A stretch of 64,000 nt of DNA from Desulfovibrionaceae bacterium (GTDB lineage Bacteria > Desulfobacterota > Desulfovibrionia > Desulfovibrionales > Desulfovibrionaceae): assembly GCA_040307135.1 (NCBI GenBank), contig JAWRKD010000130.1, positions 4,231 to 68,230 of the forward strand, written 5' to 3'. The translations under genes and the position numbers were made by a program. Under the pieces are notes generated by a model. It did not search any database. It saw only the letters and a list, made by a program, of their open reading frames with translations, and was not told the origin of the DNA. Below, one piece after another: positions 4,527-18,829 of this stretch (positions within the stretch are counted from its first letter, which is position 1; the number at the start of each line of letters is the position of its first letter).

Positions 4527-5042
4527 TCATTTATCGATATTCTCGAAGGCCTCGATGCCGCTCTGGATGCGGGCCAGAAGCGCGGTCAAGGTGACCCACT
4601 CCTCGCAGGTCAGGCAGGCGGCGAAGCGCGTGGTCCGGCGGGAATGCTCCGGCAGCACCCGCTGGATCAATTCCTGCCCCTGGGGAGTCAGGCGCACGAG
4701 CTTCTTGCGCCGGTCCTCGGCGTCGTCCGCGCGGGTCACCAGCCCGTCCCGCTCCAGCCCGTCCAGGAGCCCGGTCATGGTGGCCCGGGTCACGCCCACC
4801 CCGTGGGCCAGGGACGAGGGCGACACGGCTTCGTCCGGGGTGCGGAACATGACCGCCAGGACGAGGAAGCGGCCATTCGACAGCCCGTACTGGCTCAGGA
4901 AACGCTCGAACGACTCGCGCATGTCGCGTGTGGTGAGGCCCAGGGCCAGACAGGCCCGCACGGCCCGAGGGTCCATGGAGTTGAACCGCCGGGAAATGTC
5001 CAACAGCATGGCTTCATCAGGGAAGTCGCGGACAAACAGCAT
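4527..5042 (-). CDS. MarR-family transcriptional regulator
   Basis: 171-aa ORF. Winged-helix region LSNGRFLVLAVMF...SSLAHGVGVTRATMTGLLDGLERDGLVTRADDAEDRRKKLVRLTPQGQEL is typical of MarR. Confidence 0.85.
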   Translation of the reverse strand: MLFVRDFPDEAMLLDISRRFNSMDPRAVRACLALGLTTRDMRESFERFLSQYGLSNGRFLVLAVMFRTPDEAVSPSSLAHGVGVTRATMTGLLDGLERDGLVTRADDAEDRRKKLVRLTPQGQELIQRVLPEHSRRTTRFAACLTCEEWVTLTALLARIQSGIEAFENIDK

Positions 5043-5104: not shown

Positions 5105-5869
5105 TCACCTCCAGCGCGCCATGAACCCGGCCGCGTCCCCGCCCGCGTCCAGGTGCTTGATGAGGCTGGAGCCGAACACGGCCGCGTCCACCTGGCCGCG
5201 CAGTTCGGCCAACTGCTCCGGGGACTTGATCCCGAAGCCCAGGGCCAGGGGGATGGTGAAGGTCTCCTTGGCCAGGGCCAGGCCCTGGCGCACCTCGGAC
5301 GGCAGGCTGGCGCGCTCGCCCGTGGTGCCCAGGACCGAGACGAAGTAGGCGAAGCCCCGGGCCTTCCTGGCATAGAGGCCCATGCGTTCCCGGCTCGTGT
5401 TCAGGCCCACCAGGGGGATGAGGTCCAGGCCCTGGGCCTCCAGGGCCTCGCGCACGGGCCCGGCCTCCTCGAAGGGCAGGTCGGCCAGGATCAGCCCGTT
5501 GACGCCCGCGGCCGCGGCGTCCTTGGCGAAGCGATCCAGGCCATACTGGAGCACCGGGTTCAGGTAGCCCATGAGCACGATGCCCGCCCGGATGCCCGCG
5601 CGCCGCAGGGCCAGCTCGTTGAGAATCCAGGACAGGTTCACGCCCAGGTCCAGGGCCTTGAGCGAGGCGGCCTCCACCACGGGGCCGTCGGCCACGGGAT
5701 CGGAAAAGGGCATGCCGATCTCGATGATGTCGGCCCCGCCCGCGTCCAGGCCCGCGATTTCGACCCAGAAGCGGGACTTGTCCGGGTAGCCCGCGGGCAG
5801 GAAGGGAATGAGGCCCAGACGCCCGGCGGCGTGGGCCGCCGTGATCTTCTCGGTGAGCAGCGAATTCAT
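5105..5869 (-). CDS. trpA: Tryptophan synthase alpha chain
   Basis: 254 aa. LIPFLPAGYPD...IIEIGMPFSDPVADGPVV...GLILADLP...YFVSVLGTTG are canonical TrpA motifs. Confidence 0.95.
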   Translation of the reverse strand: MNSLLTEKITAAHAAGRLGLIPFLPAGYPDKSRFWVEIAGLDAGGADIIEIGMPFSDPVADGPVVEAASLKALDLGVNLSWILNELALRRAGIRAGIVLMGYLNPVLQYGLDRFAKDAAAAGVNGLILADLPFEEAGPVREALEAQGLDLIPLVGLNTSRERMGLYARKARGFAYFVSVLGTTGERASLPSEVRQGLALAKETFTIPLALGFGIKSPEQLAELRGQVDAAVFGSSLIKHLDAGGDAAGFMARWR

Positions 5870-5896
5870 GATGATCTCTCCGTTGGCTATCCGGTT

Positions 5897-7060
5897 TCAG
5901 CCCTGGCTCTCGGCCACGATGCCCAGGTCCTTGTCCCCGCGGCCCGAGAGGCAGACGATGACGCTCTGGCCCTTGAGCTCGGCGGCGTTCTCCAGGACCC
6001 AGGCCAGGGCATGGCAGGATTCCAGGGCCGGGATCACGCCCTCGCCCCGGGTCAGGGCCTGGAACGCGGCCAGGGCCTGGCGGTCGTTGGCCAGGCGGTA
6101 TTCGGCCCGGCCGGCGGCCTGGAGCGCCGCGTGCTCCGGCCCCACGCCCGGGTAGTCCAGGCCCGGGGCGATGGAGTGCGAGGGCAGGATCTGGCCCTCG
6201 TCGGTCTGCAGGAGCTGGGTGCGCATGCCATGGAGCACGCCGGGACGGCCCAGGTTCAGGGGCGCGGAGTTGTAGCAGCCCGGCTCGCCCGAGCCCGCGG
6301 CCTCCACGCCGATGAGCCGCACCTCGCGGTCCGGGATGAACTCGTGGAACATGCCGATGGCGTTGGAGCCGCCGCCCACGCAGGCCACCACGGCGTGCGG
6401 CAGGCGGCCGTTCTTCTCCAGGAACTGGGCCCGGGCCTCGCGGCTGATGACGGTCTGGAACTCGTGCACCAGCTCCGGGAAGGGATGCGGACCGGCGGCC
6501 GTGCCGAAGCAGTAGTGGGCGGTCCGCTGTTCCGCGATCCAGTAGCGCAGGGCCGCGTTGATGGCGTCCTTGAGGGTCTGGGTGCCGGACTCCACGGCCA
6601 CCACGCGCGCGCCCAAAAGCTCCATGCGCTGGACGTTGTGGGACTGCCGCTGCACGTCCACCGCGCCCATGAAGACCACGCACTCCAGGCCGAAGCGCGC
6701 CGCGGCCGTGGCCGTGGCCACGCCGTGCTGGCCCGCTCCGGTCTCGGCCATGAGCACGCGCTTGCCGATCATCCGGGTGAGCAGGCCCTGGCCGATGGTG
6801 TTGTTGATCTTGTGCGAGCCGGTGTGGTTCAGGTCCTCGCGCTTGAGCCAGATGTCCACGCCCGTGGCCGCCGAGAGCGTGGGGCAGAAGGTCAGGGGCG
6901 AGGGACGGCCCACGTAGTCCTTGAGTTCCGCGGAGTAGCGCGCCCTGAACTCGTCGGTGCGCACCACCTCGGCCAAAACCTTCTCCAGCTCCAGAAGCGG
7001 CGGCATGAGCAGCTCGGGCACGAACTGTCCGCCGAAGTCGCCGAAATAGCCTTTCTTCAT
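5897..7060 (-). CDS. trpB: Tryptophan synthase beta chain
   Basis: Internal ATG at 7060 gives 387 aa, starting MKKGYFGDFGGQFVPE. PLP-lysine motif LNHTGSHKINN; GGGSNAIG. The start overlaps the trpF stop by 4 nt (ATGA). Confidence 0.95.
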   Translation of the reverse strand: MKKGYFGDFGGQFVPELLMPPLLELEKVLAEVVRTDEFRARYSAELKDYVGRPSPLTFCPTLSAATGVDIWLKREDLNHTGSHKINNTIGQGLLTRMIGKRVLMAETGAGQHGVATATAAARFGLECVVFMGAVDVQRQSHNVQRMELLGARVVAVESGTQTLKDAINAALRYWIAEQRTAHYCFGTAAGPHPFPELVHEFQTVISREARAQFLEKNGRLPHAVVACVGGGSNAIGMFHEFIPDREVRLIGVEAAGSGEPGCYNSAPLNLGRPGVLHGMRTQLLQTDEGQILPSHSIAPGLDYPGVGPEHAALQAAGRAEYRLANDRQALAAFQALTRGEGVIPALESCHALAWVLENAAELKGQSVIVCLSGRGDKDLGIVAESQG

Positions 7061-7704
7061 GACCTCTCTCCCCGCTGTTGGATGTTGCGCCCGGCAAGCC
7101 GCAGAACCTGCGCGATCTTGTCCGGGTTCTTGATGCCCGGGGCGTCCTCCACCCCGGAGTTGCAGTCCAGGCCAAAGGGCGCGCAGGCCGCCAGGGCGGC
7201 CGCCACGGTGTCCGGGCCGAGCCCGCCCGCCAGGAACCAATCCTTCGGCATCACAGCCTGTTGTAAATATGTCGCATCAATGCTCCGGCCGTGGCCGCCG
7301 CCCGCGCTTCCGGCGTCCAGGAGCAGGTAGCGGCAGCAGTCCGCAAAGGCCGCGGCCTCGACCTCCAAGGCCTGGCGCGAGCCCAGGGCCTCGGGCCAGA
7401 GCACCTTGACGACCCGCTCCGGTCCCACGGCCCGGCAGAACCCCCGGTCTTGGCCCCCGTGGAGCTGGGCCAGGTCCAGACCGGCCAGATCCATGATCCG
7501 GTTCACCTCGTCCGCGGTCTGGCGCACGAAGAGCCCCACCTTGAGCCCGCGGCCCCGCTGGAAACGGGCGGCAAAGGACGGATCCACGCAACGTGGGCTG
7601 CCGGAATGGAAGATGAAGCCGAGGAAGTCCACGCCCAGGTCCTGGCAGGCCAGCACGTCCTGACTGCGGGTCAGGCCGCAGACCTTGATCCGCACCGGGT
7701 TCAC
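7057..7704 (-). CDS. trpF: N-(5'-phosphoribosyl)anthranilate isomerase
   Basis: 215 aa. VRIKVCGLTR...GVDFLGFIF...SPR...LDAGSAGGGHGRSID...FLAGGLGPD is TrpF-like. It sits between trpC and trpB. Confidence 0.9.
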   Translation of the reverse strand: MNPVRIKVCGLTRSQDVLACQDLGVDFLGFIFHSGSPRCVDPSFAARFQRGRGLKVGLFVRQTADEVNRIMDLAGLDLAQLHGGQDRGFCRAVGPERVVKVLWPEALGSRQALEVEAAAFADCCRYLLLDAGSAGGGHGRSIDATYLQQAVMPKDWFLAGGLGPDTVAAALAACAPFGLDCNSGVEDAPGIKNPDKIAQVLRLAGRNIQQRGERS

Positions 7705-8465
7705 GGCCGCCCTCCCCGCGCCAGGGCGGCCAGGGCCGCGCCGGGGTCGGCGCTGGACATGAGCGAGGTGCCCACCAGCACGGCCCCGAAGCCCAGGTCG
7801 CGCATCTCGGCCACCTGCTCCGGCCGGTCGATGCCGCTGGCGCTGATCCAGAACTCGCCCGCCCCGCGCTGCGGGGCCAGCCGCCGCGACACGTCCAGGC
7901 CCACCCGCAGGGTGTCCAGATCGCGGTTGTTCACCTGGAGGAGCGTGGCCCCGGAATCCCGCGCCAGGCCCAGGTCGGCCTCGTCGAAGACCTCCACCAC
8001 GGCCTCCAGGCCCAGGCCCTCGGCCTGCTCGCGCAGGCTGCGCAGCTCCGTGGCCGCGCCGAACATGCGCGCGATGAGCAGGAGCGCCGAGGCCGAGGTG
8101 GCCGCGGTCTGGGCCACCTGGAGCGGATGAAAAAGGAAGTCCTTGCGCAACAGCGGCAGGCCCGGCCCGGTCATGGCCGCGAGAAATTCAAGCCGGCCCT
8201 GGAAATAGGCCTCCTCGGTGAGCACGGAGAGGGCCGCGGCCCCGGCCCGGGCATACATGGCGGCCACATCGCCGGGCTCCAGCCCCAGGTTGATGACGCC
8301 CTTGGACGGCGAGGCCCGCTTGTACTCGGCAATGACCGCGCAGGGGCCCTTGGCCTCCAGTCCGGCCCGGAAGCCCGGCCGCGCGCCGGGCAGCGGGGGC
8401 GGCGGGCCCTGGGCCAGCAGCCGCTCGATCTCGGCCTGTTTGGCCTGGCGGAAACGCTCAAGCAT
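7701..8465 (-). CDS. trpC: Indole-3-glycerol phosphate synthase
   Basis: 254 aa. VIAEYKRASPSKG...LSVLTEEAYFQG...LLRKDFL...QVNNRDL...SGI are TrpC motifs. It overlaps trpF by 4 nt. Confidence 0.9.
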   Translation of the reverse strand: MLERFRQAKQAEIERLLAQGPPPPLPGARPGFRAGLEAKGPCAVIAEYKRASPSKGVINLGLEPGDVAAMYARAGAAALSVLTEEAYFQGRLEFLAAMTGPGLPLLRKDFLFHPLQVAQTAATSASALLLIARMFGAATELRSLREQAEGLGLEAVVEVFDEADLGLARDSGATLLQVNNRDLDTLRVGLDVSRRLAPQRGAGEFWISASGIDRPEQVAEMRDLGFGAVLVGTSLMSSADPGAALAALARGGRP

Positions 8466-9453
8466 GGGGGGCCTCCGGGCTCAGGCCCCGGGCCACCTTG
8501 GCCCTGGCCTCCTCCAGACAGTCGGCCAGGGGCCGCTCCGTGAGGAGCGAAAGACAGGCCGCCAGGTTCAGGGCGGTCATGTCCTGCATAGCCGCGTTGC
8601 CTTGGCCCGCCAGCACGGCCTTGAGCGCGGCCACGGCCTGGTCCTTGCCCTCGGCGCGCACTCCCTCGGGCTTGTGCAGGGGCAGGCCCAGGGCCTGGGG
8701 GTCGATCTCCAGGGACTCCACCGCGCCGCCCCGCACGAGCCGGGCCTGGGCCGGGCCGAAGGGGGTCAGTTCGTCGTAGCCGCCGAAGCCGTGCACCACC
8801 AGGGCGTGCTCCACGCCGGTGAGGGCCAGGGTCCGGGCCATGAGGTCCAGGGCCTGGGGCACGCCCACGCCCAGGAGCTGATGCGTGGGCCGGGCCGGGT
8901 TCAGGAGCGGCCCCATGAGGTTGAACAGGGTGCGGATGCCCAGTTCCCGGCGCACCGGCACCACGTGGGCGAAGGCCGGATGAAAGGCCGGGGCGAAGAG
9001 GAACACGAAGTTGCGGCGCGCAAGCTCCCGCGCGGCCTCCTCGGGCTCCTTGGGCAGGGGCAGGCCCAGGGCCTCCACCGCATCGGCGCTGCCGCAGGAC
9101 GAGGACACGGCGCGGTTGCCGTGCTTGACCACCTTGTGCCCCATGTCCGCCAGGAACAGGGCCACGGCCGTGGAGCAGTTGAAGCTGCACGAGCCGTCGC
9201 CGCCCGTGCCGCAGGTGTCGATGCGCGCGCCGGAAAGCCCCTCCACCCGGCGGGCGTGGCCCAGGGCCGCGTTCACGGCCGCGGCCAGTTCCTCCGGGGT
9301 CTCGCCCTTGGCCCGCAGGCCCATGAGCAGGGCCCCGGCCTGGGCCTGGGTCAGCTCCCCGGACATGAGCGCGCCGAAGGCCGCGCCCACCTGTTCCGCG
9401 CCCAGGTCCTGGCCCCGGGCCAGGGTCTCCAGAATGTCGCGAAGACCGTCCAT
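8458..9453 (-). CDS. trpD: Anthranilate phosphoribosyltransferase
   Basis: 331 aa. IDTCGTGGDGSCSFNCST...VVKHGNRAVSSSCGSADVL-like...FLFAPAFHPA are TrpD signatures. Confidence 0.95.
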   Translation of the reverse strand: MDGLRDILETLARGQDLGAEQVGAAFGALMSGELTQAQAGALLMGLRAKGETPEELAAAVNAALGHARRVEGLSGARIDTCGTGGDGSCSFNCSTAVALFLADMGHKVVKHGNRAVSSSCGSADAVEALGLPLPKEPEEAARELARRNFVFLFAPAFHPAFAHVVPVRRELGIRTLFNLMGPLLNPARPTHQLLGVGVPQALDLMARTLALTGVEHALVVHGFGGYDELTPFGPAQARLVRGGAVESLEIDPQALGLPLHKPEGVRAEGKDQAVAALKAVLAGQGNAAMQDMTALNLAACLSLLTERPLADCLEEARAKVARGLSPEAPHA

Positions 9454-9463
9454 GTTCCCCTCC

Positions 9464-10048
9464 TCAGGCCGCCTGCGCGGGCTGCGTGTTCAGGAAGTTG
9501 GCCAGGAGCGCCGGCCCCTGGGGCGTGAGAATGGATTCGGGATGAAACTGCACCCCGGCCCAGGGCCGGTCCAGGTAGGCGAGCCCCATGACCTCGCCCT
9601 CGGCCGTGCGGGCCGTGGTCCGCAGCGCCTGCGGGGCCTCGTGGGCCAGCACCAGGAGCGAATGGTAGCGGCAGACCTCGAAGGGATTGGGCAGCCCCGC
9701 GAAGAGGCCCGCGCCCTCGTGCTCCACCAGGGAGGTCTTGCCGTGCATGATGCGCTCGGCGCGCACCACCGAGGCCCCGGCGTGATGGCCCAGGATCTGG
9801 TGGCCCAGGCACACGCCCAGCACAGGCACGCTTTTGGGCAGCCGCTTCAGGAATTCCAGGCAGAGCCCGGCGTTCTCCGGACGGCTGGGGCCGGGCGAGA
9901 TGCAGACCCGCGACAGCCTGCCGCCGGCGGCCAGCTCCAGGACCTCGGGCCGGTCGTTGCGATAGACCACGGGGTCGGCCCCCAGCTGCTGGAATGCCTG
10001 CACCAGGTTGAAGGTGAAGGAGTCGAAATTATCGATGAGCAAAAACAT
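9464..10048 (-). CDS. trpG: Anthranilate synthase component II (glutamine amidotransferase)
   Basis: 194 aa. MFLLIDNFDSFTFNLVQ...ISPGPSRPE...PVLGVCLGHQ...VQFHPES is a class-I GATase triad context. It overlaps the trpE 3' end by 20 nt. Confidence 0.9.
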   Translation of the reverse strand: MFLLIDNFDSFTFNLVQAFQQLGADPVVYRNDRPEVLELAAGGRLSRVCISPGPSRPENAGLCLEFLKRLPKSVPVLGVCLGHQILGHHAGASVVRAERIMHGKTSLVEHEGAGLFAGLPNPFEVCRYHSLLVLAHEAPQALRTTARTAEGEVMGLAYLDRPWAGVQFHPESILTPQGPALLANFLNTQPAQAA

Positions 10049-11441
10049 CGCCGTCCTCCTTGCCCCGGATCACCTCGCGCAGCACCCGGGCCTTGTTGTT
10101 GGCCTCCTGCCATTCCTTTTCCGGCACCGAATCATAGACCAGCCCGGCCCCGGCCTGCCAGGAGACCCTGCCGTCTCGGATCCACATGCTGCGGATGGTG
10201 ATGCCCGTGTCCAGGCTCACCGCCCCCTTGTCCAGGCCGAGCCAGCCGATGCACCCGGCGTAGGGTCCCCGGTTGCGGCGCTCCATCTCCGCGATGGTCC
10301 GCATGGCCCAGATCTTGGGCGCGCCGGACACGGTGCCCGCCGGGAAGGTGGAGGCCAGCACGTCCAGGGCGTCCAGGCCGTCCCGCAGCTGGGCCTCCAC
10401 GTAGGAGGTCAGGTGCATGACGTGGGAGAACCGCTCCACCTGCATGAACTTTTCCACCCGCACCGTGCCCGGGGCCGCGATGCGGCCCAGGTCGTTGCGT
10501 CCCAGGTCCACGAGCATGACGTGCTCGGCCCGCTCCTTGGGATCGGCCAGCATGTCCTCGGCCAGGGCCTGGTCCTGCTCCGGCGACTTGCCCCGGGGCC
10601 GGGTCCCGGCGATGGGCCGCACCTCCAGCCTGCCCCGCTCGCAGCGCACCATCATCTCCGGCGAGGAGCCCACCAGGATCACCTCGGGGAAGCGCATGAA
10701 GAACATGAACGGCGAGGGATTGGCCTGGCGCAGGCGGCGGTAGATGGAGAAGCCGTCCTCGCAGGCAGGCACCGAGAAGCGCGTGGAGAGCACCAGCTGG
10801 ATGCCCTCGCCCGCGGTGATGAGCTCCTTGGCCTTGCGCACGCCCTCACAATACTCTTCGCGGCCGGGCGAAACCTCGGGCTCGTCCGGGCAGCCGCCGC
10901 TGCCCGGCTCCAGGGACACGGCCATGGGTTCGGGCCGGGCGTCCCGGTCCAGGGCCAGGAAGCAGCAGCGGTGGCGCAGGTGGTCGAAGAGCACCACGCG
11001 GCCCGCCAGCACCAGGCAGGACTCGGCCTCGGCCGGAGGCACGGCCTGGGCCAGGGCCGGTTCGAACATGCCCGCCGTGTTGTAGCCGAAGTAGCCGTAA
11101 AGCCCGCGGGTGAGCGCGGGCAGCTCGCCCACGCCTTCGTCCGGCGTCAGGACCAGGCGCTGCATGACCCGGCGCACGCCCTCCAGGAAAGGCAGGCCCT
11201 CCAGGTCCCTGAGCCCCGCCAGGCGCTCGTCCGCCATGTCCAGGGCCAGCCTCCCGTCCCGGGGCGTCAACCGCAGGCGGAAGTCCCAGGCCATGAGGCT
11301 GAAGCGGCCCAGGCGGCCGTCCACCTCGGCGCTCTCCAGGAGAATGCCGGGCTTCTCTCCCACCAGGCTCAGGTAGAGGCTGATGGGCGTCTGCACGTCG
11401 GCCGGAAGCCACTGTCCGTATTGTTGCAAGCGAATGTCCAT
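10029..11441 (-). CDS. trpE: Anthranilate synthase component I
   Basis: 470 aa. LLESAEVDGRLGRFS...; C-terminal chorismate-binding domain SPEMMVR...IAGTRPRG...HVMLVDLGRNDLG...FPAGTVSGAPK...YAGCIGW. RBS GGGAGGAAACA. Confidence 0.95.
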   Translation of the reverse strand: MDIRLQQYGQWLPADVQTPISLYLSLVGEKPGILLESAEVDGRLGRFSLMAWDFRLRLTPRDGRLALDMADERLAGLRDLEGLPFLEGVRRVMQRLVLTPDEGVGELPALTRGLYGYFGYNTAGMFEPALAQAVPPAEAESCLVLAGRVVLFDHLRHRCCFLALDRDARPEPMAVSLEPGSGGCPDEPEVSPGREEYCEGVRKAKELITAGEGIQLVLSTRFSVPACEDGFSIYRRLRQANPSPFMFFMRFPEVILVGSSPEMMVRCERGRLEVRPIAGTRPRGKSPEQDQALAEDMLADPKERAEHVMLVDLGRNDLGRIAAPGTVRVEKFMQVERFSHVMHLTSYVEAQLRDGLDALDVLASTFPAGTVSGAPKIWAMRTIAEMERRNRGPYAGCIGWLGLDKGAVSLDTGITIRSMWIRDGRVSWQAGAGLVYDSVPEKEWQEANNKARVLREVIRGKEDGDVFAHR

Positions 11442-11454
11442 GTTTCCTCCCGTG

Positions 11455-11492
11455 TGAAAAACGAAGGCCGCGCCCCTGTGCGGGGCGCGGCC
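11455..11492 (-). terminator. Intrinsic terminator/attenuator immediately upstream of trpE
   Basis: Minus-strand RNA reads GGCCGCGCCCC-GCACA-GGGGCGCGGCC followed by UUCGUUUUUCA. The tail ends about 3 nt before the trpE RBS. The structure lies 31 nt after the tyrA stop. Confidence 0.6.
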
Positions 11493-11523
11493 TGTATTCC
11501 TCTGCCGTCTGAGCTCTCGCTCA

Positions 11524-12297
11524 CTACCGCCCCGCCCCGTTTCCGTCTCGCCACCACCAGCCGGCCTGGTCGGCCAGCAGGTCCAGGTCGCCCCCGGCGG
11601 CCAGAGCCAGGAGGCTGCGGAAGCGGCGCACCGCCTCCTGGCTGAAGGGGTTGGAATCCGCGATGACGCCGAACATCTCGCGGTCCTGGGTGAGCATCTT
11701 GCGGGCCGAGTCCAGCCGCCGCTGGAGCGAGGGAGTCAGGAAGCGGCCCTGGGGGTCCACCTCGCGCAAGCTCGCCAGGTAGGCCACCGTGGTGGTGAAG
11801 TTGAGGCCCTGGACCACGGCCAGGGCGCGATCGTGCTCCTCGGCCGTGCAGAAGAACGGGCTGTAGCCCAGCTTCTGCAGGAAAGCGGACACGGCCCGGG
11901 CAGCGGCCTCGTCCCGGCCCGGGCAGACCGCCACCCGGGGCTCGAAGCCCTCGGGGATCACCGGCCCGAACAGGGGATGCGCGCCCACCACGGCCCCGGA
12001 AAAGGCCTCGAGCATCTGCTTGAGCGGCAGCACCTTCACGGAGCAGAGGTCGGCCAGGATGCAGCCGGGGTCCAGCTCCGGGGCCACGGCGTCCAGGACC
12101 GCGCCCATCTTGTTGATGGGCACGGATAAGAGCACCAGGTCCACGCCGCGCACGGCCGCGTCCACGCGCTCCGGCGTGAGCGGACGGCTCAGGGGGCGGA
12201 CCTCCAGACCGGCGCGGCGGGCGGCCTCCACGAACAGGGCCCCCATCTGCCCCCCGGCCCCCGCCACGGCCAGGCTCCGCACGAGCCGCTCAGCCAC
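11524..12297 (-). CDS. tyrA: Prephenate dehydrogenase
   Basis: 257 aa. N-terminal Rossmann motif LAVAGAGGQMG...DLVLLSVPI...ILADLCSVK...VGAHPLFGP. The C-terminal tail ends ...ADQAGWWWRDGNGAGR. Confidence 0.85.
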   Translation of the reverse strand: MAERLVRSLAVAGAGGQMGALFVEAARRAGLEVRPLSRPLTPERVDAAVRGVDLVLLSVPINKMGAVLDAVAPELDPGCILADLCSVKVLPLKQMLEAFSGAVVGAHPLFGPVIPEGFEPRVAVCPGRDEAAARAVSAFLQKLGYSPFFCTAEEHDRALAVVQGLNFTTTVAYLASLREVDPQGRFLTPSLQRRLDSARKMLTQDREMFGVIADSNPFSQEAVRRFRSLLALAAGGDLDLLADQAGWWWRDGNGAGR

Positions 12298-13636
12298 GTC
12301 CGGCCTCCCGGGCGGCCGCGGCCACCGTGTCCCACTGCGTAAAGAAGCCGGGGAAGGACTTGGCCACGCAGCCGGGGTTGTCCAGGGCCACGTCCACCCC
12401 GGCCAGGGAGTACAGGGACAGGCTCATGGCCATGCGGTGGTCGTTGTGGGACGAAAGCGGGACCGCGCGGTCCTTGACCGGGGTCCCGGGAATGACGCGG
12501 ATGCCGTCGGACAGAAGCTCGGCGCCGCAGCCCGCGCGCGCGATCTCCGAGGCCAGGGCCCCCAGGCGGTCGGATTCCTTGATGCGCAGGTGCGCCACGT
12601 TGCGGATGACGGTCTCGCCCCGGCCCAGGGACGCGGCCACGGCCACGGTGGGCACCAGGTCCGGGCAGTGGCCCATGTCCAGGTCCGCGCCCCGGAGCCC
12701 GTCCGGAGCTGGCTCCACCAGGACGCTGCCGCCCTGCCAGGACACGGCGGCGCCCATGCGCTGCAGGATGTCGAGGATGGCCCGGTCGCCCTGGAGCGAA
12801 TCCGGCCGCAGACCGGCCACGCTCACGGGGTTGGGACCCAGGGCCCCGGCGGCCAGGAAATAGGAGGCGTTGCTCCAGTCGCCCTCCACCTTGTAGTCCC
12901 GGGCCTGATAGACCCCGGGCTCCATGACGAAGCGGATGGCCCCGGGCCGGGCCTCGAAGGCGCGGCCGCGGGAAACCGCCGTCCAGCGGTCCGCGTCCAG
13001 GAGCTTCACGCGGGCGGCCACGCCGAAGTCCTCCAGCACCTGCAAGGTCAGGGCCACGTAAGGCCAGGACACCACCTTGGAGCCGCCCACGCCGATGGTC
13101 AGCGGACCGCGGGCCAGGGGCGCGGCCAGGAGCAGGCCCGAAAGGTACTGGCTGCTCTCCTCCATGGAGATGGTCAGGGAACCGCCGGACAGGCCCCGGG
13201 TGGCGAGGACCACGGGCGGGTATCCGGGCGCGGCCTCGTAGCCCGCCACGACGCCCTGGGACTCCAGGGCGCGGAAGATCTCGCCGATGGGCCGTTCGTG
13301 CATCCGGCCCTCGCCGTGGATGCGGAAAGCGCCGCTCCCCGCGGCCAGGACCCCGGCCAGCAGGCGGCAGGTGGTGCCGGACTCGCCCACGTTCATGTCC
13401 GCGGGCCGCTCCGGGCTGCCGCCCTGGGGCCCCTGGCGCATGCCCGTGACCGTGGCGGCCTCGAAGCCGCCGTCAAAGACCGCGCCGCAGGTCTCCAGGC
13501 AGGCCCGGGTGCGCCGGAGATCCTGGCTGTCCAGGAGCCCGCTCACGCGGGACCGGCCCGGGGCCAGGGACGCAGCGATGAGCGCCCGGTGGGACATGGA
13601 CTTGGAGGCCGGGGCCTGGACGGAAACCGTGTGCAC
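12290..13636 (-). CDS. aroA: 3-phosphoshikimate 1-carboxyvinyltransferase (EPSP synthase)
   Basis: Proposed GTG start at 13636 (RBS AGGGGAGG), 8 nt after the pheA stop, gives about 448 aa. PASKSMSHRALIAASLA...LDSQDLRRT...GESGTTCRLLAG...IKESDRL...SHNDHRMAMS are EPSPS motifs. The ORF-track start at 13741 would overlap pheA by 95 nt. Confidence 0.85.
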   Translation of the reverse strand: MHTVSVQAPASKSMSHRALIAASLAPGRSRVSGLLDSQDLRRTRACLETCGAVFDGGFEAATVTGMRQGPQGGSPERPADMNVGESGTTCRLLAGVLAAGSGAFRIHGEGRMHERPIGEIFRALESQGVVAGYEAAPGYPPVVLATRGLSGGSLTISMEESSQYLSGLLLAAPLARGPLTIGVGGSKVVSWPYVALTLQVLEDFGVAARVKLLDADRWTAVSRGRAFEARPGAIRFVMEPGVYQARDYKVEGDWSNASYFLAAGALGPNPVSVAGLRPDSLQGDRAILDILQRMGAAVSWQGGSVLVEPAPDGLRGADLDMGHCPDLVPTVAVAASLGRGETVIRNVAHLRIKESDRLGALASEIARAGCGAELLSDGIRVIPGTPVKDRAVPLSSHNDHRMAMSLSLYSLAGVDVALDNPGCVAKSFPGFFTQWDTVAAAAREAGRG

Positions 13637-13646
13637 CGCGCCTCCC

Positions 13647-14756
13647 CTAGCCCATGGTCTCGATGTGCGGCCCGGCCGGGTAGGAGCCCAGGACCTTGAG
13701 GGTGTGGCAGCGCTGGCGCAGCTCGGCCAGGAAGCTCTCATACTCGGCCTTGCTCAGGTCGCACTCGAGGTCGGTGAAGAACACGTACTTCCACTTCTCG
13801 CCGCGCAGGGGCCTGGACTCCAGCTTGGTGATGTTGATGGCCCGGCCCGCGAAGGAGTCGAGCACCTCGGCCAGGGCGCCGGGCTTGTCCGGCACGGTGA
13901 AGAGGATGGAGGTCTTGTCCCGCGAGGGCTCGGTGTTGGGCCGTGGCCCGATGACCAGGAAGCGCGTCCAGTTGTCCGGGGCGTCCTCGATGTGCTCGGC
14001 CAGGACGTTCAGGCCGTAGCGGTCGGCCAGGCGCACGTGGCCCACGGTGGCCACCTCGGGTCCGCGGCGGAAGGCGATCTCGGCCGCGGCCGCGGTGCTG
14101 GCCTCGGGCACCAGAGTCCGGCCGGGCATGTTGTTCCGCAGCCAATGGGCGCACTGGTCCAGGGGCTGGGGATGGGAGTGGATCTCGCGCACCTCGGCCG
14201 TGTTCGCGGCCTTGCCCATGAGGCAGTGGGTGATGCGGCTGAACAGCTCGGCCTGGATGAACACCGGGAAGAGCATGAAGAGGTCCACCACCTGGCCCAC
14301 GGTGCCCTGGAGCGAGTTCTCCAACGGGATGACGCCCAGCTCGGCCTCGCCGTCGGACACGGCCCGGAAGATGTCCTCGAAGTTGGCCCGCGGCGACAGC
14401 TCGGCCGAGCGGCCCATGTACTCCAGGCCCGCGAAATAGGAGAAGGTGCCCTCGGGCCCCAGATAGACCACGCGTTCGGGGCGCTGGAGGCGGCGCGAGG
14501 AGGACATGATCTCGCGGTAGATGGCCCGCAGGTGGCTCTCGGGCAGGGGCCCGGCGTTGCGGGCGTTGAGCCGGTCCAGGACCTCCTTCTCGCGGAAGGG
14601 CTTGAAGACCGTCTCGATGGAGTCGGCTTTGGCGCGGCCCACGGCCACGCTGATGGCGGCCCGCTGGTTGAGCAGGTCCAGGATCTGGTCGTCCAGCCCG
14701 TCGATGGTTTTGCGCAGCTGGAGCAGGTCCAGTTCGAGGCTGTGGTTGCCGTCCAT
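13647..14756 (-). CDS. pheA: Bifunctional chorismate mutase / prephenate dehydratase (P-protein)
   Basis: 369 aa. N-terminal chorismate mutase helix LRKTIDGLDDQILDLLNQRAAISVAVGRAK; prephenate dehydratase domain YLGPEGTFSY...IPLENSLQGTV; ACT domain TSILFTVPDKPGALAEVL...INITKLESRP. Confidence 0.9.
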   Translation of the reverse strand: MDGNHSLELDLLQLRKTIDGLDDQILDLLNQRAAISVAVGRAKADSIETVFKPFREKEVLDRLNARNAGPLPESHLRAIYREIMSSSRRLQRPERVVYLGPEGTFSYFAGLEYMGRSAELSPRANFEDIFRAVSDGEAELGVIPLENSLQGTVGQVVDLFMLFPVFIQAELFSRITHCLMGKAANTAEVREIHSHPQPLDQCAHWLRNNMPGRTLVPEASTAAAAEIAFRRGPEVATVGHVRLADRYGLNVLAEHIEDAPDNWTRFLVIGPRPNTEPSRDKTSILFTVPDKPGALAEVLDSFAGRAINITKLESRPLRGEKWKYVFFTDLECDLSKAEYESFLAELRQRCHTLKVLGSYPAGPHIETMG

Positions 14757-14758
14757 GC

Positions 14759-15730
14759 TCAGCCTTCCTTGATGTCTTCGCGGATGCGCATGCCGAAATG
14801 GCGGCCGGGTTCGTCCACGCGCACGAGCACCTCGTCCCCGGGTTTGAGCGCGACCACGCTCACGGGTTCGCCGCCGGGCCGGGTCAGCCGGATGGTCTCG
14901 GCGTTCTGCAGGAAGACCTGCCCGCTCTTGCCCCCCGCCTCGGCCGTGACCAGGAGCATGGGCCGCACCTCCACCTTGACCCGGCCCACGGTGGCCAGGC
15001 TGGAGGACCCGGCGGCGTCCACCACGAGCACGTCGCGGCCCGCGGCCAGCTCCTCCAGGTAGCTCGTCTTGTCGCCGGGCATGACGCAGTATGCGTGCAC
15101 GGCCCCGGCATTGACCCGGAAGGGACGCGCCGCCACGTAGGGATTGGACTCGGTCTCGGCGTGCACCAGGAAGGTGAAGGCGCTGGAATTGCCCACCAGC
15201 ATGCCCTGGCCCTTTTTGAGCATGGAGATGGTGTCCACGCAGACCCGGTGGCCCAGCCCGGCGTGGCGGATCTCCGTGACCCGGGCCGGAACCAGGGGCT
15301 GCACGCCCTGGGCCAGCTTGACCTCGGCCACGATGGCCTTGAGCTCCCCGGCCGCCTCGGGCAGGACCACGATGGTCTCGGCCCCGCGCTCCAGGACGCC
15401 CGCGGCCAGCCTGGCCCGGTCCAGGGACTCCACTTCCAGGCCCACGTCCGGGGCCTGGGCCAGGATGTTCTCCACCGGGATGATCTCCCAGCCCTTGGCC
15501 AGGACCACGCGCTCCCCGGCCTTGAGGCGGCGCACGGCCTCCTCCTCGTCGGACTTGGCGGCCAGCGCCACCACCGGCAGGTCCTCGGGGGTCAGGACCT
15601 GGACCCGGCCCAGGGCGCGCACAGCCTCGACCTTGTCCGCGCTGGTGAGCACGGCGTCCACGCCGGACTCCAGGGCCAGGGTCACGAGCTTTTTGTCAAA
15701 CGGCAGGGCCTTGAACACGATGGTCTTCAT
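14759..15730 (-). CDS. 3-dehydroquinate synthase type II (archaeal-type, AroB')
   Basis: 323 aa. The family was recognised from the overall sequence (e.g. VCVDTISMLKKGQGMLVGNSSAFTFLVHAETESNPYVAARPFRVNAGAVHAY). It sits next to an ADH-synthase-like aldolase at the head of the aro operon. Confidence 0.8.
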   Translation of the reverse strand: MKTIVFKALPFDKKLVTLALESGVDAVLTSADKVEAVRALGRVQVLTPEDLPVVALAAKSDEEEAVRRLKAGERVVLAKGWEIIPVENILAQAPDVGLEVESLDRARLAAGVLERGAETIVVLPEAAGELKAIVAEVKLAQGVQPLVPARVTEIRHAGLGHRVCVDTISMLKKGQGMLVGNSSAFTFLVHAETESNPYVAARPFRVNAGAVHAYCVMPGDKTSYLEELAAGRDVLVVDAAGSSSLATVGRVKVEVRPMLLVTAEAGGKSGQVFLQNAETIRLTRPGGEPVSVVALKPGDEVLVRVDEPGRHFGMRIREDIKEG

Positions 15731-15731
15731 G

Positions 15732-16532
15732 CTAGTCCTCGCCCGCGATGGCCAGGGCCTCTTCCACGGAAGCGCCCTTGTGCACCACGGCGTTGAGCGC
15801 CCGGGTCAGGGCCGCGGGGTCCTTGTGCTGGAAGATGTTGCGGCCCACGGACAGGCCCGCGCCGCCCGCGGCCAGGGAGTCCCGGACCATTTCCAGGAAG
15901 GCCTTGGTGCTGTTCAGCTTGGGGCCGCCCGCGATGACCACGGGGATGCAGCAGGCCGCCACCACCTGGGAAAAGCTCTCGGGGTCGCCGGTGTAGGGCA
16001 CCTTGACCACGTCCGCGCCGAGCTCCATGCCCACGCGGGCGCAGTGAGCCACCACGTCCGGGTCGAATTCGTCGGTGATCTTGGGGCCGCGGGCATAGAC
16101 CATGGCCAGAAGCGGCATACCCCACTCCGTGGCCCGGGAGGCGATGGTCCCCAGGTCGCGGAGCATGGCGGGCTCGGTCTCGTCGCCCAGGTTCACGTGC
16201 ACGGACACGCCGTCCGCGCCCAGGCGCAGGGCGTCCTCCACGCTGGCGCAGAGGGCCTTGGCGTTGGGAAAGGGCGAGAGCGTGGTGCTGGCCGAGATGT
16301 GCACGATGAGACCCACGTCGCGGCCGTGCGTGCGGTGGCCGCAGCGCACCAGCCCCTTGTGCATGAGCACGGCGTTGGCCCCGCCTGTGGCCACGGCGCC
16401 CACGGCCGCGCGCATGTCCACCAAGCCAGCGATGGGACCCACGGTGACGCCGTGGTCCATGGGCACCACCACGGTGCGGTGCGTGTCGCGGTCAAAAATC
16501 CGTTCCAGTCTGATGCTTTTCCCCAGATGCAT
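15732..16532 (-). CDS. 2-amino-3,7-dideoxy-D-threo-hept-6-ulosonate (ADH) synthase-like class I aldolase (AroA', DhnA family)
   Basis: 266 aa. [13 protein letters not shown]...ANAVLMHKG...[12 protein letters not shown]...[10 protein letters not shown]...[10 protein letters not shown] is a DhnA-type class I aldolase pattern. RBS GGAGGAGG. It is the first gene of the aro-trp supraoperon. Confidence 0.8.
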
Positions 16533-16580
16533 GGCCGTCCTCCTCCAGTTTGGCGCCCTTCGCTGGTCCCGGCTCCGGCG

Positions 16581-16623
16581 GCTGAAACAAGAAGGGCCGC
16601 CGGCTTTGCGCCTGCGGCCCTTC
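16581..16623 (-). terminator. Leader terminator (attenuator) of the aromatic supraoperon
   Basis: Minus-strand RNA reads GAAGGGCCGC-(AGGCGCAAAGCCG)-GCGGCCCUUC followed by UUGUUUCAG. The loop can extend the stem through GGC/GCC. It lies about 48 nt upstream of the first gene's ATG and 32 nt after the leader ORF stop. Confidence 0.6.
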
Positions 16624-16655
16624 GAAGAGGCTTGGTTTTCTGCAGCTACCCTTGG

Positions 16656-16748
16656 CTACAGTGCACCTCTCCCGAAACCGCAAGCGCGGGTGCGCCAATA
16701 ATACCAATAGCCATAAAAAAAGGAGTTGCGGGGTTCGGAGAGGTTCAT
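16656..16748 (-). CDS. Aromatic amino acid leader peptide (30 codons), not in the ORF track
   Basis: ATG at 16748-16746, TAG at 16658-16656. Translation is MNLSEPRNSFFYGYWYYWRTRACGFGRGAL. Codons 10-18 (FFYGYWYYW) are 8/9 Phe/Tyr/Trp. A terminator hairpin follows. Confidence 0.6.
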   Translation of the reverse strand: MNLSEPRNSFFYGYWYYWRTRACGFGRGAL

Positions 16749-17005
16749 GGGCAATGCCCTATCCCAGTTGGCCGGAGGCTGTCAACAGTTTTCTCTTCCA
16801 ACCAGTGGGATTGCGGCGCCTTTTCCCCGGCCGTTTCATTTCCCTAGATAAGGGCGCAGCCCTTGCGCCATTTTTATACGGTTTTTTCTTTTTTGTGAAT
16901 TCTTTCTCACCAGTCATGACACGATTGTTATACAATAAACATTTTTGAAGAGTATTTCCCCCGGCCATCGCAAATACAATCAATAATTTCTTGATGTTGT
17001 AAAAG

Positions 17006-17021
17006 TGGCCCGGGGTTTGCT
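17006..17021 (+). promoter_or_regulatory. Sigma-54 (-24/-12) promoter of amtB-glnK
   Basis: TGGCCCGGGGTTTGCT matches TGGCAC-N5-TTGCW with correct GG-N10-GC spacing. It lies 45 nt upstream of the amtB ATG. An AT-rich upstream region carries inverted repeats. Confidence 0.6.
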
Positions 17022-17065
17022 TTGCGCCTCGCATCCCATCCCGCACACTTTTAAGGAGGAAGCGT

Positions 17066-18466
17066 ATGTTGTTCAGCAAGTCGCCGACCGGATTCCGGCT
17101 GAGCAGGACCCTCGGGGGGGCGGTCCTGTTCGGCCTCGCCCTGGCCCCTGCCCTGGCCCTGGCCCAGGATGCTCCCGCCGAGGCCGCCTCTGCCGCCGAA
17201 AACGTGGTGGAGTATCTCACCCAGTCCAACGCCAACATCATGTGGACGCTCATCGCGTCCGTGCTGGTCATGTTCATGCAGGCCGGCTTCGCCATGGTCG
17301 AGGCCGGTCTGACCCGGGCCAAGAACACCGGCAACATTCTCATGAAAAACATGTTCGACTTCGCCGCCGGTTCCGTGACCTTCTACATCCTCGGCTTCGG
17401 CCTGATGATGGGTCTGGACCACGGCGGGTTCATCGGCCTGTCCAATTTCAACCTCTCGGACTGGACCCCGGCCACGGATGAAGGCCTCTGGGGCTTCACC
17501 TTCTGGTTCTTCCAGTGCGTGTTCGCCGCCACCGCCACCACCATCGTGTCCGGCGCCATCGCCGAGCGCACCAAGTTCGTGGCCTACCTCATCGCCTCCG
17601 TGGCCATCACCGGCCTCATCTACCCCGTGTCCGGCCACTGGATCTGGGGCGGCGGCTGGCTCTCCAAGCTGGAGGCCCCGATGATCGACTTCGCCGGCTC
17701 CACCGTGGTCCACTCCGTGGGCGGCTGGATCTCCCTGGCCGGCGCCCTGCTCATGGGACCGCGCATCGGCAAGTACTCGCCGGACGGCAAGTCCCGCGCC
17801 ATTCCGGGCCACAGCATGGCCCTGGTGGCCCTGGGCGTGTTCATCCTCTGGTTCGGCTGGTTCGGGTTCAACCCCGGCAGCACCGTGGCCGCGCAGGCGA
17901 ACATCGCCCTCATCGCCGTGACCACCAACCTGGCGGCCTGCACCGGCGGCCTGGCGGCCATGATCACCGCCTGGGTGCGCTACGGCAAGCCCGACGTCTC
18001 CATGAGCTTCAACGGCGTCCTGGCCGGTCTGGTGGCCATCACCGCCGGTTGCGCCAACGTGAGCCCGGACGGCGCCATGATCATCGGCCTGTTGGCCGGT
18101 GTGGCCGTTGTCCTCTCCGTGGACTTCATCGACAAGGTCCTCAAGATCGACGACCCGGTCGGCGCCATCTCCGTGCACGGCGTGTGCGGCGCCCTGGGCA
18201 CCATCTGCGTGGGCCTCTTCGCCAGCCCGGACTACGGCGGGGTGGCCGGCCTGTTCTACGGCGGCGGCATGACCCAGCTCACCACCCAGCTCATCGGCGT
18301 GGGCACCGTGTTCCTCTGGGCCTTCGGCACCGGTCTGGTCCTCTTCTTCATCCTCAAGGCCACCGTGGGCATCCGCGTGCCGGCCGAGGAAGAAATCAAG
18401 GGCCTGGACATCACCGAGCACGGCCAGGAGGCCTACAGCGGCTTCCAGATCTTCACCAACGAATAG
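17066..18466 (+). CDS. amtB: Ammonium transporter (Amt family)
   Basis: 466 aa. Signal peptide, then WTLIASVLVMFMQAGFAMVEAG...DFAGSTVVHSVGGW...GFNPGS...SVHGVCGALGT are Amt signatures. RBS AAGGAGGAAG. Confidence 0.95.
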   Translation: MLFSKSPTGFRLSRTLGGAVLFGLALAPALALAQDAPAEAASAAENVVEYLTQSNANIMWTLIASVLVMFMQAGFAMVEAGLTRAKNTGNILMKNMFDFAAGSVTFYILGFGLMMGLDHGGFIGLSNFNLSDWTPATDEGLWGFTFWFFQCVFAATATTIVSGAIAERTKFVAYLIASVAITGLIYPVSGHWIWGGGWLSKLEAPMIDFAGSTVVHSVGGWISLAGALLMGPRIGKYSPDGKSRAIPGHSMALVALGVFILWFGWFGFNPGSTVAAQANIALIAVTTNLAACTGGLAAMITAWVRYGKPDVSMSFNGVLAGLVAITAGCANVSPDGAMIIGLLAGVAVVLSVDFIDKVLKIDDPVGAISVHGVCGALGTICVGLFASPDYGGVAGLFYGGGMTQLTTQLIGVGTVFLWAFGTGLVLFFILKATVGIRVPAEEEIKGLDITEHGQEAYSGFQIFTNE

Positions 18467-18496: not shown

Positions 18497-18829
18497 ATGA
18501 AGCTGATCGTAGCCTACATCCGGCCCGACCGCCTGAACGCGGTCAAGCAGGAACTGTACGCCAAGGAAATCTACTCCCTGTCCGTGACCAACGTCCTGGG
18601 CGCCGGCCGCCAGAAGGGCTTCACCGAAACCTATCGCGGCGTGGTCATGGAAGTGAACCTGCTCAAGAAGGTCCGTCTGGAGATCGGCGTGAACGACGAC
18701 TTCCTGGACAAGGCCATTGAGTCCATCAAGAAGGGCGCGCACACCGGCAAGGAAGGCGACGGCGTGATCTTCGTCACCGAGTTGGCCAAGGCCCTGCGCA
18801 TCCGCACCGGCGAGGACGGCATCCTGTAG
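18497..18829 (+). CDS. glnK: P-II nitrogen regulatory protein
   Basis: 110 aa. MKLIVAYIRPDRLNAVKQEL; T-loop GAGRQKGFTETYRG; GDGVIFVTEL...IRTGE. It lies immediately downstream of amtB. Confidence 0.9.
   Translation: MKLIVAYIRPDRLNAVKQELYAKEIYSLSVTNVLGAGRQKGFTETYRGVVMEVNLLKKVRLEIGVNDDFLDKAIESIKKGAHTGKEGDGVIFVTELAKALRIRTGEDGIL

Follow-up and report, generated by a model that had tools for sequence, protein, structure and literature searches.

The minus strand of a 64,000-nt stretch of contig JAWRKD010000130.1 from a Desulfovibrionaceae bacterium (the window, whose positions are used throughout) carries a 12-gene aromatic amino acid operon, and its first gene, starting at 16532, encodes an archaeal-type 2-amino-3,7-dideoxy-D-threo-hept-6-ulosonate (ADH) synthase (NCBIfam E=1e-122). 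Ahead of this gene lie a promoter, a short open reading frame (ORF) with a dense run of Phe, Tyr and Trp codons, and an intrinsic terminator. From the comparative analysis described here this leader is very probably a ribosome-mediated (leader-peptide) transcription attenuator that responds when any one of the three aromatic aminoacyl-tRNAs runs short. The leader and the operon comprise the following features.

16780-16785, minus strand: -35 box TTGACA of the leader promoter, conserved 5′ of the leader ATG in relatives
16756-16761, minus strand: -10-like hexamer TAGGGC, 18 nt past the -35 box and 7 nt before the ATG (spacing in 39 leaders)
16656-16748, minus strand: leader ORF, 30 codons plus TAG, MNLSEPRNSFFYGYWYYWRTRACGFGRGAL (translation; equivalents in about 70 of 80 related loci)
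16725-16747, minus strand: segment 1, codons 1-8, containing ACCUCUCCGAACCCCGC, partner of segment 2 and predicted anti-antiterminator (duplex energy and minimum free energy (MFE) fold)
16695-16721, minus strand: regulatory run FFYGYWYYW, codons 10-18 (shuffle test and codon counts)
16665-16685, minus strand: segment 2, codons 22-28, GCUUGCGGUUUCGGGAGAGGU, predicted 5′ strand of the antiterminator (alignment pairing and folds)
16610-16631, minus strand: segment 3, GCCUCUUCGAAGGGCCGCAGGC, predicted to form the antiterminator with segment 2 or the terminator with segment 4 (alignment pairing and folds)
16582-16623, minus strand: intrinsic terminator, stem 16623-16610 / 16604-16591, loop GCAAA, then UUGUUUCAG (sequence and folding)
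16539-16546, minus strand: Shine-Dalgarno (SD) sequence GGAGGAGG of the ADH synthase gene
5105-16532, minus strand: operon of the genes for ADH synthase and DHQ synthase II, pheA (chorismate mutase/prephenate dehydratase, CM/PDT), aroA, tyrA, trpE, trpG, trpD, trpC, trpF, trpB and trpA

The first-pass annotation of this DNA had placed the leader ORF between an ATG at 16748-16746 and a TAG at 16658-16656, and translating 16656-16748 reproduces it to the base, including the eight Phe, Tyr or Trp codons among nine consecutive ones (codons 10-18, TTT TTT TAT GGC TAT TGG TAT TAT TGG). As a short start-to-stop ORF 5′ of an amino acid biosynthesis operon, it is placed as the ORFs of the attenuator class are. 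Across all six frames of the 69% GC window FFYGYWYYW is the sole 9-residue stop-free stretch with eight aromatics; the two stretches with seven per nine both overlap it, and 30 dinucleotide-preserving shuffles yielded none with six or more. All six Phe and Tyr codons of the run end in U, the rare forms in this genome, as the operon genes use TTT 17 times versus 119 for TTC and TAT 15 times versus 40 for TAC.

Orthologous leaders were compared at the 80 best loci from a one-genome-per-species collection, all of them from Desulfovibrionales and including Desulfovibrionaceae, Desulfomicrobiaceae, Desulfohalobiaceae and Desulfonatronospira, with genomes that range from AT-rich to 69% GC; the window's ADH synthase shares 95% identity with its counterpart in the metagenome-assembled genome 'Desulfovibrio sp. 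UBA4079'. About 70 of the 80 loci have an ORF of 25-37 codons with 4-9 aromatics per nine residues (at least six in most); from its end to the ADH synthase ATG there are 93-145 nt, and the N-terminus and the composition of the run vary freely. Loss of the aromatic run from orthologous leaders had been named beforehand as an outcome that would speak against attenuation, and the alignment shows the run to be conserved. Where the ADH synthase gene is followed by those for DHQ synthase II and PheA (the supraoperon arrangement, 56 loci), 54 loci have a leader and all 54 leaders contain F, Y and W, in line with the suggestion that a mixture of Phe, Tyr and Trp codons fits an operon making all three amino acids. 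Stand-alone ADH synthase paralogues account for a further 19 loci, 12 of which have a leader, 11 of these without Trp; the remaining five of the 80 are unclassified since their sequence ends too soon past the ADH synthase gene. We regard the ORF as enriched in codons for the products of its own operon because of these three observations together, the eight aromatic codons in nine, the three residues found in every operon-type leader and the paralogue leaders that do without Trp.

The paralogue leaders are F-only (e.g. FFFFTSVFFGF, RFFFFFSF), F/Y or Y-rich (GPYYYYYGF), and they share the layout of the operon leaders, most with the same terminator core, so that mainly the regulatory codons differ. 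A codon content that tracks the downstream genes is what codon-specific sensing by the ribosome would predict, and it would be hard to accommodate in a protein- or ligand-sensing model. One RNA scaffold re-programmed by swaps of its regulatory codons is unusually clean comparative evidence for codon-specific sensing, and it suggests that the ADH synthase paralogues may be attenuated in an isoenzyme-specific manner. If this is true, control through the F-only and Y-rich leaders would parallel the way in which E. coli regulates each of its three DAHP synthases differently.

Downstream of the ORF, the hairpin formed by GAAGGGCCGC (16623-16614) and GCGGCCCTTC (16600-16591) with 13 nt between them, followed by TTGTTTCAG (16590-16582), is as first described and does begin 32 nt past the leader stop codon. 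Three additional inner pairs (GGC/GCC) extend it to a GC-rich 13-bp stem, which reads GAAGGGCCGC-A-GGC-GCAAA-GCC-G-GCGGCCCUUC in full (16623-16591) and folds with -27.3 kcal/mol. It stands ahead of the first biosynthetic gene, as had been stated, with about 49 nt between the end of the U-tract and the ADH synthase ATG at 16532. RNA structures were measured on an alignment of 40 diverse leaders, in which 94.4% of the terminator's alignment cells are paired, five pairs show compensatory changes, and the core GGGCCGC.GGC...GCCGGCGGCCC varies unusually little in sequence within the order.

The earlier proposal to fold the leader in search of mutually exclusive structures was carried out, and a terminator and an antiterminator that exclude each other were found, the antiterminator strand being the last codons of the leader ORF itself. 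Neither the antiterminator nor the pairing of segments 1 and 2 (1:2) was part of the first-pass annotation; both were located in this analysis. In the closing helix of the antiterminator, the Cys-Gly codons CUGCGGCC near the ORF end pair with GGCCGCAG of the terminator 5′ arm, and 95.5% of the helix's cells are paired, versus 38-48% with the partner slid. Antiterminator pair 124:200 covaries (UA 27, CG 8, UG 4), and because column 200 is an unpaired A/G mismatch within the terminator this covariation speaks for the antiterminator alone. With the terminator 3′ arm removed, all 40 sequences fold into the closing helix and a second, inner helix, which is GGAGAGGU:GCCUCUUC in the window and differs in sequence among clades. 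Fold energies across the leaders are -22 to -43 kcal/mol for the antiterminator and -21 to -29 kcal/mol for the terminator.

The last codons of the ORF also bear on a different proposal, namely that the ORF encodes a functional aromatic-rich micropeptide for which the hairpin is merely the terminator, with the operon served by its own promoter. Leader peptides that act in trans exist, peTrpL of Sinorhizobium among them, and the C-terminal motif RACGxG appears conserved. This motif, however, follows the RNA pairing: SRACG changes to SHARG while pair 119:126 is retained through compensatory change (GC 17, AU 8, GU 8), and the conserved entity would for this reason be the RNA and not the peptide, with 'RACGxG' reflecting the pairing. 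Since, in addition, N-termini and run composition are free to vary, the roughly 50 nt between terminator and ADH synthase gene offer neither room for nor sign of a promoter, and the peptides are absent from a 15-billion-protein collection, Pfam and NCBIfam, we consider a micropeptide very improbable.

Pairing of segments 1 and 2 is supported as well, less strongly than the other helices. In the window, the predicted duplex of 16747-16725 with segment 2 has -25.5 kcal/mol (z = -3.2); over the 40 sequences the median is -21.7 kcal/mol, with a mean z of -1.9 versus shuffles and a z below -1.64 in 22 of the 40. The MFE fold of the free transcript combines 1:2 with the terminator in 39 of the 40 sequences, that of the window included, and on this account the default state of the element is predicted to be OFF, as it is in E. 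coli trp. For the 1:2 role a short local hairpin, CCGC-GCUU-GCGG, was considered and rejected, its corrected columns being only 61% paired and the 5′ end of the ORF being the better partner. The spacing of the parts suits a ribosome-operated switch in two respects: segment 2 starts 11-17 nt past the last aromatic codon in most leaders, which would be just past the leading edge of a ribosome stalled in the run, and the leader stop codon stands 15 nt past the helix-A strand in 21 of the 40 leaders, from which it follows that a terminating ribosome would cover segment 2. With leader ORF, terminator, antiterminator and 1:2 pairing all conserved, the architecture of ribosome-mediated attenuation that had been proposed for this locus is supported at the level of sequence.

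The unusual constancy of the terminator core across the order could also suggest a binding site, if the terminator/antiterminator switch were real and set by a trans-acting factor or ligand (a TRAP-like protein, an uncharged tRNA in the manner of a T-box, or a small molecule) and the ORF were incidental, as an ORF that has no SD might be. We find this improbable. The terminator arm must pair with two further conserved strands, which accounts for its constancy; about 70 loci retain the ATG, the reading frame and the place of the stop; and the set of aromatic codons follows the downstream genes on an RNA scaffold that is usually unchanged. Of a TRAP-type array (9-11 (G/U)AG triplets at a spacing of 2-3 nt, overlapping the antiterminator) not so much as a run of three triplets is present, whether in the 5′ leader or between tyrA and trpE, and neither a T-box match to Rfam in the window nor a T-box motif in the leader was found. 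The Rfam leader families (Trp_, Phe_, His_, Leu_ and Thr_leader) have no match in 15500-18000, even at E up to 10, and across the whole window no Rfam family reaches its gathering score.

Attenuation by a translating ribosome requires that the leader ORF be translated, which would occur from the very 5′ end of the transcript. Of 39 leaders, 38 have TTGAC(A) ahead of the leader ATG, at a distance of 30-31 nt in 29, the 'TA' of the -10-like hexamer follows 17-18 nt past the -35 box in 38 of the 39, and the end of the hexamer is 7-8 nt from the ATG. From this spacing of -35 box and -10-like hexamer relative to the ATG, the predicted transcription start falls on the A of the ATG or directly beside it, which would give a leaderless transcript; an SD-like motif precedes the ATG in only five of the 39 leaders. 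Such starts have precedents. Fourteen predicted attenuator leader peptides of Deinococcus deserti begin at the 5′-AUG of the transcript and have no SD (PMC4007540), and attenuator leader peptides of Corynebacterium glutamicum are translated off leaderless mRNA (ilvBNC, PMC11857589). The geometry in D. deserti is alike, and its trpEGD leader is likewise Trp-related; this is, however, another phylum with partly other amino acids, and its starts are backed by dRNA-seq, whereas the start proposed here is derived from promoter spacing.

Put together, these elements suggest the following course of events. Transcription would begin from the TTGACA promoter, the first nucleotide of the transcript probably being the A of the leader ATG, and a ribosome would load on the 5′ AUG without the help of an SD. 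When Phe-, Tyr- and Trp-tRNA are all charged, this ribosome would cross the nine-codon run to the TAG and cover segment 2; segment 3 would then be left to segment 4, and the terminator that they make would stop RNA polymerase at about 16590-16584. Should any of the three charged tRNAs be scarce, the ribosome would stall in FFYGYWYYW and keep segment 1 off segment 2; the free segment 2 would take segment 3 once it is transcribed, and the resulting antiterminator (-36.8 kcal/mol) would remove the 5′ arm of the terminator and let the polymerase read through into the ADH synthase gene. Without translation, 1:2 and the terminator would form and the element would be OFF. Both the translation of the leader ORF and the regulatory response to amino acid supply are, in this scheme, inferred from the sequence.

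Five points weigh against it. The attenuation switch is proposed here from sequence and predicted folds; the window's leader ATG has no preceding SD, so that translation hinges on the predicted leaderless start; and two of the 56 operon-type loci have no leader, one of them at a contig end and the other with a tandem ADH synthase gene upstream. In equilibrium folding of the full transcript with the ribosome footprint masked, the terminator persists in the stalled states, co-transcriptional kinetics and steric exclusion being outside this model, which means that the switch must be kinetic, as it is in E. coli. Lastly, the U-tract in the window is weak (UUGUUUC), and those of relatives are better. 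A poor U-tract could also mean that the ORF does sense the charging of aromatic tRNAs, with Rho-dependent termination or control of ADH synthase translation as the output. Such an output is highly unlikely given that relatives have canonical U-tracts directly past the same hairpin and that the ADH synthase SD lies about 35 nt past the hairpin and not in it. Transcription attenuation by the leader-peptide ribosome is thus the reading we retain, and it would give a concrete regulatory mechanism for aromatic amino acid synthesis in Desulfovibrionales, sulfate reducers that use the archaeal-type entry through ADH synthase and DHQ synthase II.

The logic of 1:2, 2:3 and 3:4 pairing and the short ORF rich in codons for the end product are those of the E. 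coli trpL and pheL attenuators (PMC11802643), and the leader shares with these a stop codon placed so that the terminating ribosome covers segment 2 and an untranslated default that is OFF. The differences are several. The E. coli leaders use the codons of a single amino acid, whereas here Phe, Tyr and Trp codons are mixed, eight of nine in a row; their regulatory codons lie inside segment 1, whereas the present run lies between segments 1 and 2; and the leader described here has no SD, a predicted leaderless start and, unlike trpL and pheL, a 12-gene operon headed by an archaeal-type ADH synthase gene behind it. Similarity to the E. coli leaders, in sequence or by covariance model, is absent. 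The closest functional analogue is the aroR leader (Phe-Tyr-Phe) of C. glutamicum, which lies upstream of aroF and attenuates the gene for the first committed enzyme of the common pathway (Neshat et al. 2014, per PMC11802643), with a reported response to Phe only (PMC11802643). It too mixes aromatic codons, but has only three and none for Trp, and it regulates a DAHP synthase operon instead of an ADH synthase/trp supraoperon, in an unrelated phylum and with no detectable homology.

While the 5′ leader was originally proposed as the attenuator for the whole supraoperon, this holds only in part: an attenuator at the 5′ end is supported, but it would not be the sole control, as a strong second terminator and a run of Trp codons stand ahead of trpE. 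The elements concerned lie at the junction of tyrA and trpE.

11551-11559, minus strand: run of three TGG codons close to the 3′ end of tyrA (..AGWWWRDGNGAGR*), candidate sensor
11528-11535, minus strand: GCGGGGCG, last tyrA codons beside the stop, candidate antiterminator strand pairing with 11487-11480 (complementarity)
11455-11493, minus strand: terminator AGGCCGCGCCCC-GCACA-GGGGCGCGGCCU plus UCGUUUUUCA (fold z = -4.4)

TyrA ends in ..ADQAGWWWRDGNGAGR* in the window, with the tyrA stop codon at 11526-11524. The terminator that follows, the best terminator-like site of the operon region, has its hairpin at 11493-11465, and the element ends 13 nt before the trpE ATG (11441); GCGGGGCG is perfectly complementary to 11487-11480, in the 5′ arm and loop of this terminator. 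A WW or WWW run near the C-terminus is present in 119 of 120 TyrA homologues, nearly all of them WWW, with 2-20 residues after it. Among distant TyrA representatives WWW occurs in 11 of 150, only the nearest, and many others that keep the region have a single W, then Y or F, at this position; it therefore looks as if an older structural Trp had expanded to WWW within one clade. A metagenome scan with TyrA returned one close relative only, and in comparison with the PDB the TyrA C-terminus is unaligned.

At nine of 13 tyrA-trpE junctions (the window, L081, L082, L083, L084, L109, L110, L112 and L113) WWW is accompanied by a terminator and, at the stop codon or beside it, by an antiterminator strand; the complementary pairs covary, with six different sequences among them, e.g. 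GGGACGCGGC:GCCGCGUCCC, GGGGUGCGGC:GCCGCACCCC and GGGAGCGCG:CGCGCUCCC. A terminator is missing from both junctions that lack WWW (they have WWF and WWPP), and one further junction is ambiguous. At the last one, L108 (6715-6730), tyrA ends in WWW yet overlaps trpE (ATGA) and no terminator is present, so either the attenuator was lost there or WWW has a role besides attenuation. No meaningful match to Rfam was obtained for the tyrA-trpE junction.

On balance we favour two ribosome-sensing attenuators in series, in which the TyrA tail would act as the Trp-sensing 'leader peptide' of trpEGDCFBA with no separate peptide. A ribosome finishing tyrA would cover GCGGGGCG and thereby allow the terminator at 11493-11465 to form, whereas a ribosome stalled on the three Trp codons would free GCGGGGCG to pair with the terminator 5′ arm. 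Labour would then be divided, the 5′ leader registering a lack of whichever aromatic amino acid is short and the TyrA tail a lack of Trp only; given the terminator before trpE, the seven trp genes seem to pass a second, Trp-specific gate. In the aromatic supraoperon of Bacillus subtilis the trp genes are likewise part of a larger aromatic operon, with an attenuator of their own before trpE; its sensor is TRAP bound to (G/U)AG repeats. Both systems thus gate upstream read-through a second time before trpE, but where B. subtilis uses TRAP, the candidate sensor here is the ribosome on the WWW tail of tyrA, and (G/U)AG repeats are missing. If the TyrA-tail attenuator is true, the 3′ end of an ordinary enzyme gene can serve as a leader peptide; we found no description of such an element for TyrA in the searchable literature. 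The locus would then combine three variations on a known mechanism: mixed regulatory codons matched to the operon, a start that is predicted to be leaderless, and, probably, a second attenuator built on the C-terminal codons of an enzyme.

The mechanism itself is an ordinary one, in a family that is undescribed. A Desulfovibrio vulgaris attenuator before the same supraoperon is listed by Song et al. 2005 (BMC Biol 3:13, Table 7, from Merino's web database), and this is almost certainly the orthologous element. Their entry, at the same position before the same supraoperon in the same family, is a predicted terminator/antiterminator only and gives no sensing mechanism, conservation or tyrA-trpE element, and the words 'leader' and 'codons' are absent from the paper. 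Rodionov et al. 2004 (PMC545781) do not treat aromatic amino acids. The searchable literature yielded no description of the leader peptide, which may have been described elsewhere, and none of another regulator of this operon. NCBIfam and Pfam searches with six leader peptides gave no match, and none of seven looked up exactly is present in the 15-billion-protein collection. With the peptide missing from protein databases, Rfam, Pfam and NCBIfam, annotation pipelines would gain from a model of it. The sole match to Rfam in a permissive search of 15500-18000 is a sub-threshold one, BjrC68, which overlies the terminator at 22 bits versus a gathering score of 39, and we regard it as a generic hairpin match.

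Some further observations concern the related loci. The gene table of the NCBI-derived contig L110 lists an unnamed 31-residue product at the leader ORF position (1490-1585), so that one or more gene callers have already detected a leader of this family. The paralogue leaders lie 5′ of position 1501 or the match start at L024, L025, L027, L033, L042, L046, L047, L059, L060, L067, L070 and L079, and at seven further paralogue loci a leader was not found. At L056 (1200-1500) a DhnA-type aldolase/ADH-synthase-like gene ends directly upstream of the ADH synthase gene, which looks like a tandem duplication, and on account of this upstream gene no leader was found in the 500 nt searched. The Pseudodesulfovibrio-like contig L082 (7900-8632) has about 760 nt between the tyrA-trpE terminator and trpE, with a short gene-start-like remnant, GGGAGGGAACCATGAGGGACACATGA, right after the terminator; this may be a mobile or repeat element. 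The gene order of the 12-gene operon is the same in L081-L083 and L108-L111.

Within the window, the mechanically called trpB and aroA ORFs (5897-7240 and 12290-13741, minus strand) overlap their preceding genes by 184 and 95 nt; their family matches begin at residues 111 and 40, and the true starts are probably further downstream. A gene for a MarR-family regulator (4527-5042, minus strand) lies directly downstream of trpA on the same strand. Finally, a consensus scan flagged a terminator at 16853-16869 on the plus strand. The sequence there, GGCGCAGCCCTTGC, fits the sigma-54 -24/-12 pattern (GG-N10-GC), and the divergent genes amtB (17066-18466) and P-II (18497-18829) follow it after about 200 nt, so this site is more likely their promoter than a terminator.

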